Below, in pieces: positions 35,002 through 39,367 of a stretch of 64,000 bases of DNA (positions are counted from its first letter, which is position 1; each line of letters opens with the position of its first letter). Position numbers and translations under genes: made by a program. The notes below the pieces were generated by a model that searched no databases, had not been told where the DNA came from, and saw nothing but the letters and a program-made list of their open reading frames with translations. The DNA is from Myxococcales bacterium (lineage in GTDB: Bacteria; Myxococcota_A; Polyangia; Polyangiales; DASUME01). The stretch lies in NCBI GenBank assembly GCA_047601445.1, contig JASGJH010000001.1, forward strand, positions 8,992,001 through 9,056,000. The letters run 5' to 3'.

Positions 35002-36747
35002 CTAGGTGCGCTCGAGCAGCCAGTCGCCCAACACCAGCGCATCGAGCGGGCTGTCGACGAAGCGAGCCAGGGCTTCCGACGGTGTCGTCACCAGCACGTC
35101 GTTTTGGCTCAGGCCGGCCACCAAAAGCATGGGGATGCCACTGCGCGTCTGAAGCAAGGTCAAGAGCTCGAACAGGGTCGAGCTGCTCTCGCGCTCCACC
35201 GTGTGCACTCGGCCTGTGCCGTCGGCGCGTGCCGCGCCCGGGACCAACGGCAGCTTCTCGGGCCGCAGCGGGAACACCTTGTTCATGAAGGGCACGTCGT
35301 CGTGGAGCGCGTACCAGTCCTTGGCGTGGTCGCGTCGGATCGACGTTCCGAGACTCGCCACGGCGGGATCGATGGCGAGCGCCCTCGCAAGGGCCTCCCG
35401 GGCCTCCGGGCGCCGCGGATCCGCCAACACGACGCGATGCCCGAGCGGCTGGAAACCCCATTCCGCACGTCCCTCGCAGAGGGCCACGAGCTTGCCGCGC
35501 TCCAGCAACTCCACCACGGCGCGCGTTCGCTCCGCAGGGCGCTCGGGACGTTGAAGGCGCACACGCGCCGCTTCGAGCTCGGAACGACGATTCGCGAGCA
35601 GGGATGCCACTTCGTCCGCCTCGAAGTCGGGCCCGAGGTAGGCGTGTGCCAGCGGTCCGTGGTGCTTGGCTCCGCGCTCCTGAAAGGTCGCAAAGAGGGC
35701 TGCTCCCACTGCGCCGGCGGCGTCGCCGGCTGCGGGCGGGACGTAGGCGCGCTTGAAGGGCGTGTTGAGCGTGATCTTGCCGTTCGCGACGGCGTTGAAC
35801 GCGCAGCTGCCGGCCAACACCAGGTGCAGCGAGGGGCGCTTGCGGTGAATGGCGTGCAGCAAGTGAAAGAAGGCGCGCTCGTACATGGCTTGCACGGAGC
35901 GCGCGATGTCGAGGTGACGCGGCTCGATGGAGGCTCCGGGAGCGCGCGCAGGTCCGAGCAGATCCTCGAGGGCCGCCGTGTAGCCTGGCCCAAGCGTGGC
36001 GTCTGCACCGTGCACCTCCTGCGAGCTCGCCCAGCTGGGCTGTCGCAGGAAGCGAAAATCGAGTTCGAATCCGCCGTCGCCCCTGAGGCACACGACCTTC
36101 GCCAAGGACTCCACCTGGGTGGGCTTGCCCCGAGCCGACAGCTCCATGACCCGCTCCTCGTGGCCGCGCGCGAATCCCAGGTACTGGGTCATGGCCTCGT
36201 AGAAGAGGGCGAGCGAGTGAGGGAAGTGCAACCGCCCGTCGATCTCGAGCTGATTCTGATGTGCGTAGCACCAGGCTGCGCTGGCGAAGTCTCGCAATCC
36301 GCCGAGCGAAAGCCCCACCGCCTCCTGCCAGGGAGACGTGTAGTAGGCCGCGGCGAGCTGGGCCACGTGGTGCTCCACGAAGGCGATGCGTCCACCGAAG
36401 CGCTCCTCCGGGAACGCCTGCGCGAGCGAGTCCTCGAGCGAGTGGGGCTGAAGTCGGTTGCGAAGCTGCTGCATGACGACGCCCAGGTTGGGCCGGGTCT
36501 GCACCATCTGGGTCAAACGTTCGAGGTCGTTCGCGCGGGGGTCCTCGCTGACCGCCACGACGTGCACGTCGGCCAGGCGCAGCTTGGCTTCGGCCAAGCA
36601 AAAGCGAATCGCGTGGGCGGGGAAGCCGGACCAGTGCGCCGCGCGACGAAAGCGCTCCTCCTGGGCCGCGGCGAGCAACTTGCCGTCTACCACGATGCTG
36701 GCAGCCGCGTCGCCGTGGTTGGCATGGACCCCCAGAATGACGCTCAC
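35002..36747 (-). CDS. Carbamoyltransferase (NodU/CmcH/TobZ family) homolog with degenerate active-site motifs
   Basis: ILGVHANHGDAAA, QEERFRR, VEHH, PHSLALFY, NAVANGKI, PPAAGDAAG, DGTGRVHTV; GGGAGG SD before GTG. Confidence 0.85.
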   Translation of the reverse strand: MSVILGVHANHGDAAASIVVDGKLLAAAQEERFRRAAHWSGFPAHAIRFCLAEAKLRLADVHVVAVSEDPRANDLERLTQMVQTRPNLGVVMQQLRNRLQPHSLEDSLAQAFPEERFGGRIAFVEHHVAQLAAAYYTSPWQEAVGLSLGGLRDFASAAWCYAHQNQLEIDGRLHFPHSLALFYEAMTQYLGFARGHEERVMELSARGKPTQVESLAKVVCLRGDGGFELDFRFLRQPSWASSQEVHGADATLGPGYTAALEDLLGPARAPGASIEPRHLDIARSVQAMYERAFFHLLHAIHRKRPSLHLVLAGSCAFNAVANGKITLNTPFKRAYVPPAAGDAAGAVGAALFATFQERGAKHHGPLAHAYLGPDFEADEVASLLANRRSELEAARVRLQRPERPAERTRAVVELLERGKLVALCEGRAEWGFQPLGHRVVLADPRRPEAREALARALAIDPAVASLGTSIRRDHAKDWYALHDDVPFMNKVFPLRPEKLPLVPGAARADGTGRVHTVERESSSTLFELLTLLQTRSGIPMLLVAGLSQNDVLVTTPSEALARFVDSPLDALVLGDWLLERT

Positions 36748-36923
36748 ACAGCCTCCCGTCGAAGCGCGCCCGCGGGCGCGCAAGCGAAGATACGTGTGTC
36801 CCCACCAGGGACCACGTCGCCGCGAGGAGCGTAGCTGCTTCGCCCCCGACGGCACGTAGTGTTCCTCAGTATTTGCCAGTCTTCTCTTGACCGAATAGCC
36901 GGTTCGGCCCACAGGTAGAGATA

Positions 36924-37047
36924 CCCGCGGCGGGGGTTTCCGCTGCTGGGCAACCAGGCGACTCTGGTTGTGGGCTCGCGACGCCAGGTAGGCGCGCGCG
37001 CTTCGGCTGGGTCGCTGTCAGCGCGAGGACGGGGGTATCCGTCCCGC
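36924..37047 (+). promoter_or_regulatory. Structured thrS leader with two CGGGGGTWTCCG hairpins (candidate ThrRS operator)
   Basis: Hairpins at 36924-36950 and 37023-37047 share a core and a GGU-containing loop; the second ends 3 nt before the GGAG SD. Confidence 0.55.
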
Positions 37048-37064
37048 AACGGAGCAACGACAAT

Positions 37065-39035
37065 ATGATTAGCGTGAAACTCCCGGACGGAGGCGTCCGC
37101 GAGCTTGCCGAAGGTGCAAGCTCTTTCGACCTGGCCTCTGCAATCGGACCCGGACTCGCCAAGGCCTCCGTAGCCGCCAAGGTGAACGGCGAAGTGGTGG
37201 ACTTGAATCGCCCGTTGCCCAACGGCGCCGAGGTTCAGCTCCTCACCAAGCGCGACGCCGACGCGCTCGAGGTGCTGCGGCACTCGGCCGCGCACTTGAT
37301 GGCCGACGCCATCCTGCGCGTGTTCCCCAAGGCCCAGCTCACCATCGGCCCCGCCGTCGAGGACGGCTTCTACTACGACATCTTCCTGCCCGAAGGGAAG
37401 ATCACGCCCGACGACTTCCCCAAGATCGAGGAAGAGATGGCGCGCATCGCCGACAAGGCCGCGCCCTTCGTGCGCTGCGTGTCGAACTACGACGAGGCGA
37501 ACGAGCACTTCGCGCGCTACCAGGCCATCGATGGCGGCCACAACAAGTTCAAGCAGGAGATCGTCAGCGACATCAAGGCGCGCGGGGACGAACTCACCTT
37601 CTACAAGCACGGCGACTTCATCGACCTCTGTCGCGGCCCGCACGTGCCGAACACGGGGTGGCTCAAGCACGTGAAGCTCACCAAGCTCGGCGGCAGCTAC
37701 TGGCGTGCCGACGCCAACCGCGAGCAGCTCGTGCGCGTCTACGGCACGGCCTTCTTCGACAAGCAGGAGCTCAAGGACTACCTGCACATGCTCGAAGAGG
37801 CCAAGAAGCGTGACCACCGTGTGCTCGGCGAGAAGCTCGACTTGTTCAGCTTCCACGAGGAGGCCCCCGGCTTCCCCTTCTTCCACGAGAAGGGCGCCAC
37901 GCTCTTCAATCTGCTCCAGAGCTACATGCGCGGCTTGATCCGGCGCGCCGGCTACCATGAGGTCAAGACGCCTCTGGTGATGAGCGAGGAGCTCTGGCAC
38001 ACGTCCGGTCACTACGACAACTATCTCGAGAACATGTTCTTCACGAAGCTCAAGCTGCGTGATCCGAACCAGCCCGAGAACGTGCGCGACAACGTGATCG
38101 AAGAGCGCCCGATGGCGGTCAAGCCCATGAACTGTCCGGGCCACTGCATCGTGTACCGCACGCGCTTGCACTCGCACAACGAGTTCCCGTTGCGCATCGC
38201 CGAGATGGGCCTGGTCCACCGGCGTGAGCTGAGCGGCGTGCGTCACGGTTTGTTCCGCGTCCAGGCGTTCACCCAGGACGACGCTCACCACTTCTGCCGG
38301 CCCGATCAGATCGAGAGCGAGATCTCGATGTTGATCGACTTCTTCAAGGAGCTCTACACCACGTTCGATCTCAACGACGTGCGGCTCGAGCTGAGCACGC
38401 GGCCTGCCAAGAGCATCGGCTCCGACGAGATGTGGGAGACGGCCGAGGGCGCGCTCAAGCGGGCTCTCGATTCGAAGGGGGTCGCGTACCAGCTCAACCC
38501 CGGCGACGGCGCGTTCTACGGCCCCAAGATCGACTTCCACATCCGCGACGTGCTGAAGCGCTCCTGGCAGTGCGGCACGATCCAGCTCGATTTCTCCATG
38601 CCGGCTCGCTTCGGCCTCACCTACGTGGGCGCCGACGGTCAGCGTCACACGCCCGTCATGCTCCACCGCGCCGGCTTCGGTAGCATCGAGCGCTTCCTGG
38701 GCATCATCATCGAGAACTACGCGGGCGCCTTCCCGCTCTGGTTGTCGCCGGTGCAGGCCATCGTCATCCCCATCAGCGAGAAGTTCGCGGACTATGCCAA
38801 CGAGATCAACGGCAAGCTGCTCGACCTCGGGCTGCGCAGCCAGGTGAACCTCAGCGACGACCGCGTGGGCTACAAGATCCGTGAGGCGAGCCTGCAGAAG
38901 CTGCCCTACGCCATCGTGGTCGGTGAGAAGGAGCTCGAGAATCGCACGGTGAACGTGCGCTCGCGCGACAAGGGCGAGCTCGGTGAGATGGCCCTGGACG
39001 CCTTCGTGGGCTCGCTCGAGGCCTGGAAGAAATGA
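37065..39035 (+). CDS. thrS: Threonine--tRNA ligase
   Basis: TGS domain, RHSAAHLMA, DLCRGPH, RDHR, KPMNCPGH, GAFYGPKID, WQCGTIQLDF, HRAGFGSIERF. Confidence 0.99.
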   Translation: MISVKLPDGGVRELAEGASSFDLASAIGPGLAKASVAAKVNGEVVDLNRPLPNGAEVQLLTKRDADALEVLRHSAAHLMADAILRVFPKAQLTIGPAVEDGFYYDIFLPEGKITPDDFPKIEEEMARIADKAAPFVRCVSNYDEANEHFARYQAIDGGHNKFKQEIVSDIKARGDELTFYKHGDFIDLCRGPHVPNTGWLKHVKLTKLGGSYWRADANREQLVRVYGTAFFDKQELKDYLHMLEEAKKRDHRVLGEKLDLFSFHEEAPGFPFFHEKGATLFNLLQSYMRGLIRRAGYHEVKTPLVMSEELWHTSGHYDNYLENMFFTKLKLRDPNQPENVRDNVIEERPMAVKPMNCPGHCIVYRTRLHSHNEFPLRIAEMGLVHRRELSGVRHGLFRVQAFTQDDAHHFCRPDQIESEISMLIDFFKELYTTFDLNDVRLELSTRPAKSIGSDEMWETAEGALKRALDSKGVAYQLNPGDGAFYGPKIDFHIRDVLKRSWQCGTIQLDFSMPARFGLTYVGADGQRHTPVMLHRAGFGSIERFLGIIIENYAGAFPLWLSPVQAIVIPISEKFADYANEINGKLLDLGLRSQVNLSDDRVGYKIREASLQKLPYAIVVGEKELENRTVNVRSRDKGELGEMALDAFVGSLEAWKK

Positions 39036-39367
39036 GTACGCTGGACGATCCGCGTTTCACGCCAGTGGAGCTTCGCGCCCCGCATGGGTCCACGTTCGTG
39101 GAGATCGTGTGGGCCGACGGCAAGGTCACGCACTACGAGAACGACGTGTTGCGCGGCTTTTGCCCGTCGGCGCTGTGGCAGGGCCACCAGGGGCCGCTGC
39201 GCTACATCCCCGGCGGCCAGACCGAGCTACTCGAAATCGAGGAGGTCGGAAGCTACGGCCTCAAGATGAACTGGCCCGACAACAACACGGGCATCTACAC
39301 GTACCGCTTCCTGCGTCAGCTCGGCGAAGTCGAGGGCGATCCTCGCAACATCGAGTTCGGGCGTTAG
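39032..39367 (+). CDS. DUF971 / gamma-butyrobetaine hydroxylase N-terminal-like protein
   Basis: IVWADG..LRGFCP...VGSYGL..W.D..TGIYTY..LR; ATGA overlap with thrS. Confidence 0.85.
   Translation: MSTLDDPRFTPVELRAPHGSTFVEIVWADGKVTHYENDVLRGFCPSALWQGHQGPLRYIPGGQTELLEIEEVGSYGLKMNWPDNNTGIYTYRFLRQLGEVEGDPRNIEFGR

Follow-up and report, generated by a model that had tools for sequence, protein, structure and literature searches.

Twin anticodon-like hairpins upstream of thrS as a probable translational operator in a Myxococcales genome

What do two small hairpins, each with a threonine anticodon in its loop, do immediately upstream of thrS, the gene for threonyl-tRNA synthetase (ThrRS)? The question is raised by a window of 64,000 nucleotides from a Myxococcales genome (the whole stretch of DNA analysed), for which a preliminary description had reported such a pair of hairpins and proposed a feedback operator analogous to that of Escherichia coli, with a different sequence. 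Both hairpins are present where they had been placed, and the proximal one, at -42 to -18 relative to the ATG at 37065, does abut the Shine-Dalgarno sequence (SD), which begins 3 nt past the stem (Table 1). Comparison with related leaders, together with the analogy to E. coli, makes it very probable that this leader serves as a translational operator through which ThrRS represses its own synthesis; the enzyme would bind both loops and block its own ribosome-binding site. The mechanism itself, autorepression by anticodon mimicry, is not new, being the textbook E. coli case.

Table 1. Features of the thrS locus in the window, and the corresponding region of sister clade-B leaders.
Feature	Position	Strand	Remarks
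Divergent NodU/CmcH-type carbamoyltransferase	35002-36747	-	PF02543, PF16861 domain matches
Putative promoter: TTGACC (-35-like), 17 nt, weak -10-like CACAGGT	36887..36916	+	inferred
Distal hairpin mimicking an anticodon arm (cf. E. coli domain 4)	36924..36950	+	loop GGGUUU (36934-36939); G35/U36 equivalents 36936/36937; folding, covariation
Linker, 72 nt, one long irregular stem 36957-37016	36951..37022	+	6 unpaired nt each side
SD-proximal hairpin mimicking an anticodon arm (cf. E. coli domain 2)	37023..37047	+	loop GGGUAU (37033-37038); G35/U36 equivalents 37035/37036, G at -30; folding, conservation, model R1
Shine-Dalgarno GGAG	37051..37054	+	3 nt 3' of proximal stem, 10 nt before ATG
thrS, threonine--tRNA ligase, 656 aa	37065..39035	+	TGS, SAD, class II core, anticodon-binding domain; TIGR00418
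Small GBBH-like_N gene, overlaps thrS stop	39032..39367	+	PF06155 domain match
Clade-B short, often Thr-rich leader ORFs, then GC hairpin and U run	L043, L049-L053, about -250 to -50 of thrS (e.g. L051 1323-1418)		

The thrS reading frame scores 666.7 bits against TIGR00418 (cut-off 383.65), and no other thrS exceeds the cut-off in the whole genome. When the leader is folded alone, the distal and proximal hairpins form with probabilities (P) of 0.99 and 0.999, respectively, and the proximal hairpin keeps P 0.999 at each of five folding lengths. The folding z-score is -2.53 for 36921-37070, yet only -1.92 for the wider 36880-37080. Both loops comprise 6 nt, are G-rich and lack U33, and their first and last bases can form a G-U pair that closes the loop to 4 nt. 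The three tRNA-Thr genes of the genome (anticodons GGU, UGU, and CGU) all have 7-nt loops. The preferred linker fold is the single long stem (P 0.92). A third stem reported earlier between the hairpins, CAACCAG/CUGGUUG, is indeed base-complementary, but it lies 1.9 kcal/mol above the best fold, has P 0.08, and is, according to the folding model, probably not the dominant linker structure.

Relatives of this locus were gathered from close relatives, the order, and GTDB contigs. Clade A comprises ThrRS proteins with 69-95% identity to the window protein, its sister clade B those with 60-65%, and the other loci analysed lie at about 40-52%. The leaders analysed number 38 from clade A, 6 from clade B, and 50 from the outgroup; 5 duplicates had been set aside, as had loci whose start was unclear or whose upstream sequence was <150 nt. 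Records in clade A are labelled Myxococcota, Planctomycetota, Spirochaetales, Deltaproteobacteria, and Zetaproteobacteria, labels that may be wrong in the case of MAGs. Within a sample of 301 genomes from the order, thrS of the A/B type was found in 20 at E 1e-230.

Hairpins of this kind are a regular feature of clade-A leaders. An initial scan, whose motif was defined once the data had been seen, found an SD-proximal GU hairpin in 23/31 clade-A, 0/6 clade-B, and 3/50 outgroup leaders; the hairpin scans miss the wobble-closed domain 2 of E. coli, so the low outgroup count is compatible with operators of another build there. Dinucleotide shuffles (n = 3100) produced a proximal match in 4% of cases and two matches in 2%, compared with 23/31 and 21/31 of the real clade-A leaders. 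A second scan took the most stable SD-proximal hairpin without requiring GU. This GU-blind scan located GU at loop positions -4/-3, corresponding to anticodon positions 35-36, in 34/38 clade-A versus 3/50 outgroup proximal hairpins, and the best distal hairpin carried GU in 30/38 clade-A leaders. Both hairpins are present in 36/38 clade-A leaders in a looser, combined set that is partly hand-picked (registers were chosen by eye for the proximal hairpins of L019 and L093 and the distal hairpin of L041, the distal hairpin of L070 was dropped, and L120 was relabelled). The exceptions are L070, which has a bulged distal stem, and L057, which lacks the proximal hairpin. Counted from the AUG, G35 is placed between -26 and -33 in 33 of the 36 proximal hairpins; in L120 the hairpin is found at -63.

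The base that precedes GU is free to vary. Tallies of loops selected for GU, which show variation around GU and not its invariance (the GU-blind scan shows that), give GGU 29, CGU 19, AGU 13, and UGU 12 among 73 loops. All four Thr anticodons occur among the 36 proximal loops (GGU 13, CGU 9, UGU 8, AGU 6), and position 38 is U in 57/73 loops. The loops had been described as GGU; the GU is conserved, but the conserved signal is NGU, with all four letters at the wobble base. The loops might, as had been allowed for, have proved not to be conserved, and this is now excluded, since position 34 is free and G35 and U36 are fixed. ThrRS recognition predicts a free position 34 and a fixed G35 and U36, and NGU conservation therefore fits a ThrRS ligand and supports, at the level of sequence, the proposed analogous operator. 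The earlier caveat that the loops have 6 nt instead of 7 holds for the window and for 14/16 same-genus loops, but 41/57 loops of other clade-A members have 7 nt. The 6-nt form is thus a local variant that characterises this genus.

According to PMC4756836, bacterial ThrRS specifically contacts the second and third anticodon bases, and the E. coli enzyme also touches positions 34, 37, and 38 via Asn575, Arg583, and Arg589. Arg583, Glu600, and Arg609 are named as binding residues of ThrRS in PMC6430810. The window protein keeps these three as R606, E623, and R632, as does the outgroup, so that they do not discriminate between the groups; Asn575 and Arg589 are replaced by Asp598 and Lys612. A further trait common to clades A and B is an insertion in the catalytic domain, some 16 residues long (ThrRS ~330-345, about 38050-38100 in the window), which is absent from E. 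coli ThrRS and from the outgroup consensus. The insertion immediately precedes the motif that carries the zinc-binding cysteine.

Both stems covary on MAFFT alignments, a check that the preliminary description had proposed. For the proximal stem, 15 cells have changed on both sides (0/500 shuffles), the covariation score is reached by 1/500 shuffles, and the percentage paired is equalled by 27/500. The distal stem has 30 such cells and is 90% paired (0/500 shuffles), on an alignment whose distal regions were chosen by hairpin detection and in which three rows are misaligned. These shuffle controls are inflated by kinship, as the relatives are not independent, and the alignments were not fitted to structure. 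Whole-stem inversions in L003, L055, and L093 retain the NGU loop. In L003 (1422-1454), the distal mimic has a fully inverted stem and a 7-nt UGU loop followed by a short U run, and is terminator-like too. L010 may have a third hairpin, with GU in its loop, upstream of the two mimics (about -95 to -75 relative to thrS, oriented strand). Across the stems, GU pairs outnumber AC mismatches (30 vs 8), which favours the + strand acting as RNA.

Since the genome has 66% GC, GC-rich hairpins could also be non-regulatory, either REP-like elements or chance structure. The single core motif alone occurs 693 times in the genome. The shared 12-mer CGGGGGT(T/A)TCCG would have spoken against the proposal had it been a common genome-wide repeat, but the 9.5-Mb genome contains 5 copies, of which 2 are in this leader, where Markov models predict about 0.9-2.2 copies for both words together. 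The looser pattern of a twin core with SD and ATG occurs once in the genome, at this leader. A covariance model built from 31 proximal regions (R1) has one strong genome match (E 3.2e-8; next 0.44), namely this leader, which belongs to the training set. The counts of 12-mer, model R1, and twin pattern over the genome revealed no REP-like dispersed copies. Model R1 recovered the proximal hairpin in 8/8 held-out clade-A loci (E 4e-8 to 0.022) and gave nothing below E 0.6 on 69 other loci, including the E. coli leader. Across 150 other genomes of the phylum, 27 had weak matches (E 0.005-0.05), and thrS was found at 0/32 of the weakly matching loci checked, of which the phylum scan supplied 29 and the genome itself 3.

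In metagenomes, the loose twin pattern mostly marks unrelated DNA: among the 80 loci listed of 121, a biased sample, one precedes thrS (L153, 71% identity). Several of the metagenome matches (L137, L150, L195, L200, and L201) are short palindromic repeats with a CTAC tail, unrelated to thrS. These repeats resemble REP elements. For the clade-A hairpins, the fixed position, the covarying stems, the single twin pattern in the genome, and the low shuffle rates already largely refute repeats or chance, which we consider extremely unlikely.

The arrangement of the leader suggests a compact transcription unit. TTG is found at -49..-44 of the distal loop in 18/36 clade-A leaders, against 0-6 in the other 6-nt bins, and a -10-like hexamer often follows. 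Judging by this placement and the frequent hexamer, transcription probably starts at the distal hairpin itself, here at about 36921-36924. A consensus promoter scan gave no match in the window leader, in which the -10 is weak, and the single RNA run located (share 0.06, contigs only) gives no coverage of the leader. The spacing from G35 to G35 is 29-37 nt in 29/36 leaders and 51-112 nt in the other 7. The linker measures 0-12 nt in most clade members, and a long linker like that of the window is also found in L002. In the long-spaced leaders, the extra sequence folds into helices that leave 8-15 unpaired nt in 7/7. Such folded inserts were discarded as evidence of preserved spacing, as 90% of shuffled window linkers are equally compact. 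The long linker might nonetheless loop out as a stem, which would leave the two loops at about the usual spacing.

The distal arm has another possible partner. Positions 36931-36946 are complementary to the early coding sequence at 37071-37086 (about 15 bp), and in equilibrium folding the distal hairpin has P 0.0 when 30 nt of coding sequence are added, 0.09 at +60, and 0.99 at +100. ThrRS might thus bind the loops without simple ribosome occlusion, for example by affecting mRNA stability, or by releasing the distal arm from its partner in the early coding region and raising translation. With 30 nt of coding sequence, the alternative pairing is favoured by 7.8 kcal/mol, and the absence of a single-stranded domain 3 of the E. 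coli kind would also suit such a mechanism. However, the alternative pairing depends on folding length and is not general: at +30, 27/36 distal and 25/36 proximal hairpins of the clade keep P >0.5. The complementarity is probably due to chance, as the codons concerned encode the conserved start of the TGS domain. The distance between proximal hairpin and AUG, moreover, is the same as in E. coli, and a mode of action other than occlusion is unlikely.

The binding partner could in principle be something other than ThrRS: another RNA-binding protein, an enzyme that modifies tRNA, or a regulator that recognises two dyads in the DNA. The CGG/CCG sequences of the stems are more conserved than base pairing would demand, and one stem position retains its 3' U also where it is unpaired, as might be expected for such a factor. 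Against this, the element travels with thrS alone across phylum labels. The upstream neighbour gene varies among clade-A relatives, while the element stays with thrS; the carbamoyltransferase is upstream of thrS in 2/35 clade-A loci (the window and one other). In another relative, an acyl-CoA dehydrogenase gene lies directly upstream. Downstream, the small GBBH-like_N gene accompanies thrS in 7/36 clade-A loci, all of the same genus, and it is probably co-transcribed with thrS in this genus only. A DNA dyad would also be at odds with an asymmetric loop in which position 34 is free, and with the excess of GU pairs over AC mismatches. Recognition by a factor other than ThrRS is therefore very unlikely, and ThrRS remains the preferred candidate.

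Leaders of thrS can also be tuned through transcriptional attenuation, by a T-box or a leader peptide, and attenuator-like leaders do occur in the sister clade. A scripted search found a terminator-like hairpin in 4/6 clade-B leaders (6/6 by eye), and a short ORF with at least 3 Thr in its last 10 codons in 3/6 clade-B vs 3/38 clade-A leaders. Judging from these sequences, clade B apparently relies on a Thr leader-peptide attenuator. In clade A, the same script found terminator-like sites in 0/38 leaders, and the window leader has none. A search of Rfam over the window leader returned nothing at gathering score and only chance-level matches by E-value; the leader has no T-box match in Rfam, no terminator or antiterminator, and no Thr-rich leader peptide followed by an intrinsic terminator. 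For the window, attenuation of either kind has a practically negligible probability, and a translational operator remains the favoured reading.

How did this gene come to reside in the genome? Most other members of the order examined have thrS between a tRNA gene of the same sequence and infC. At the corresponding position here (G000 C1:734794-737500), tRNA-Val(GAC) is directly followed by infC, rpmI, rplT, and a pheS-like ORF, and thrS is missing. The names infC, rpmI, and rplT at this locus were assigned from the translations. In phylogenetic trees, clades A and B unite on a single branch (support 100) that is separate from the thrS native to the order. AU tests, run on 22 of 103 proteins with a single-matrix model and with groups named after the first tree had been seen, rejected joining A+B to the native group (p 0.0017) and joining them to E. 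coli together with one further Pseudomonadota row (p 0.0012). The clade-A gene is the only thrS in 5/5 genomes checked. The empty native locus, the separate branch, and the sole copy make this thrS look like a xenologous replacement that carried its operator with it.

These observations allow a broader and more tentative reading, plausible but on balance slightly doubtful. The clade-A locus might be a portable, self-limiting thrS cassette, consisting of promoter, compact twin operator, and gene, with an operator independent of that of E. coli. It would have spread from phylum to phylum and replaced the native thrS of several lineages, the present one among them, and the family would have switched between translational feedback and the ribosome-stalling attenuation of clade B. 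The 6-nt loops would then represent a non-canonical minimal ThrRS ligand. Such a history would suggest how an essential gene acquired horizontally can bring its own dosage control.

A literature search found no description of such an operator in these phyla. The 2002 work of Torres-Larios is said to discuss conservation of the operator in other bacteria, and comparative-genomics papers reportedly describe thrS attenuators in some proteobacteria; either could lower the novelty of the present case. Five relevant terms are all absent from the main text of PMC11109978, and passages of PMC3997798 and PMC5723415 contain nothing on the phylogenetic range of the operator. If the reading is correct, the presence in Myxococcota and Planctomycetota records of a covarying twin operator that is built differently would mean that the mechanism is either widespread or repeatedly invented. 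The roughly 70 natural loop variants would, in turn, define what ThrRS needs in a ligand (NGU, in 6 or 7 nt).

Several known systems share features with this leader. T-box elements control thrS in Firmicutes, and, like leader-peptide attenuators, they tune thrS to threonine or tRNA status, as the present leader is proposed to do. Both act on transcription, whereas a T-box, a terminator, and a Thr-rich leader peptide are absent here; a terminator in the Bacillus subtilis thrS leader is mentioned in PMC3997798. Binding of an aminoacyl-tRNA synthetase to an anticodon-like loop in its own mRNA is also known for AspRS and others in yeast, according to PMC9976931. The yeast mimics, unlike this leader, are eukaryotic, involve other synthetases, and do not occlude an SD.

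The closest counterpart is the E. coli thrS operator, whose complex with ThrRS is PDB 1KOG. In E. coli, autorepression involves dimer binding, 30S exclusion, and tRNA competition, as described in PMC11088916, PMC9976931, and PMC3858243. By analogy, transcription here would start just before the distal hairpin, and the two short GC-rich stems, whose structure and conservation emerge from the comparison, would each present an NGU loop imitating the tRNA-Thr anticodon loop. When ThrRS is in excess over tRNA, the dimer would hold both loops with its pair of anticodon-binding domains; the enzyme at the proximal hairpin, whose stem ends 3 nt before the SD, would exclude the 30S subunit, and competition by tRNA-Thr would relieve repression.

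The two operators differ in build. Sequence likeness is confined to the loop, and model R1 misses the E. coli leader. Clade-A stems are short and GC-rich, with loops 29-37 nt apart in most leaders, and 6-nt loops are common, as in both window hairpins, while the E. coli loops have 7 nt (domain 2) and 8 nt (domain 4). E. coli has a single-stranded, A/U-rich domain 3 that splits the ribosome-binding site, whereas the window linker is GC-rich and folded; the single-stranded enhancer between the E. coli hairpins, reported in PMC7297116, likewise has no counterpart in this leader. Unlike the thrS-infC-rpmI-rplT operon of E. coli, infC follows thrS in 0/36 clade-A loci. As to common descent, R1 gives no match and the genes do not group, although short RNA elements diverge quickly. 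What the two share is the gene itself and two leader stem-loops with NGU loops, together with a U at position 38 in most loops. In both, the proximal stem lies just upstream of the SD, with its loop G at about -30 here and at -32 in E. coli, where the genome record gives UUCGUGU as the domain-2 loop.
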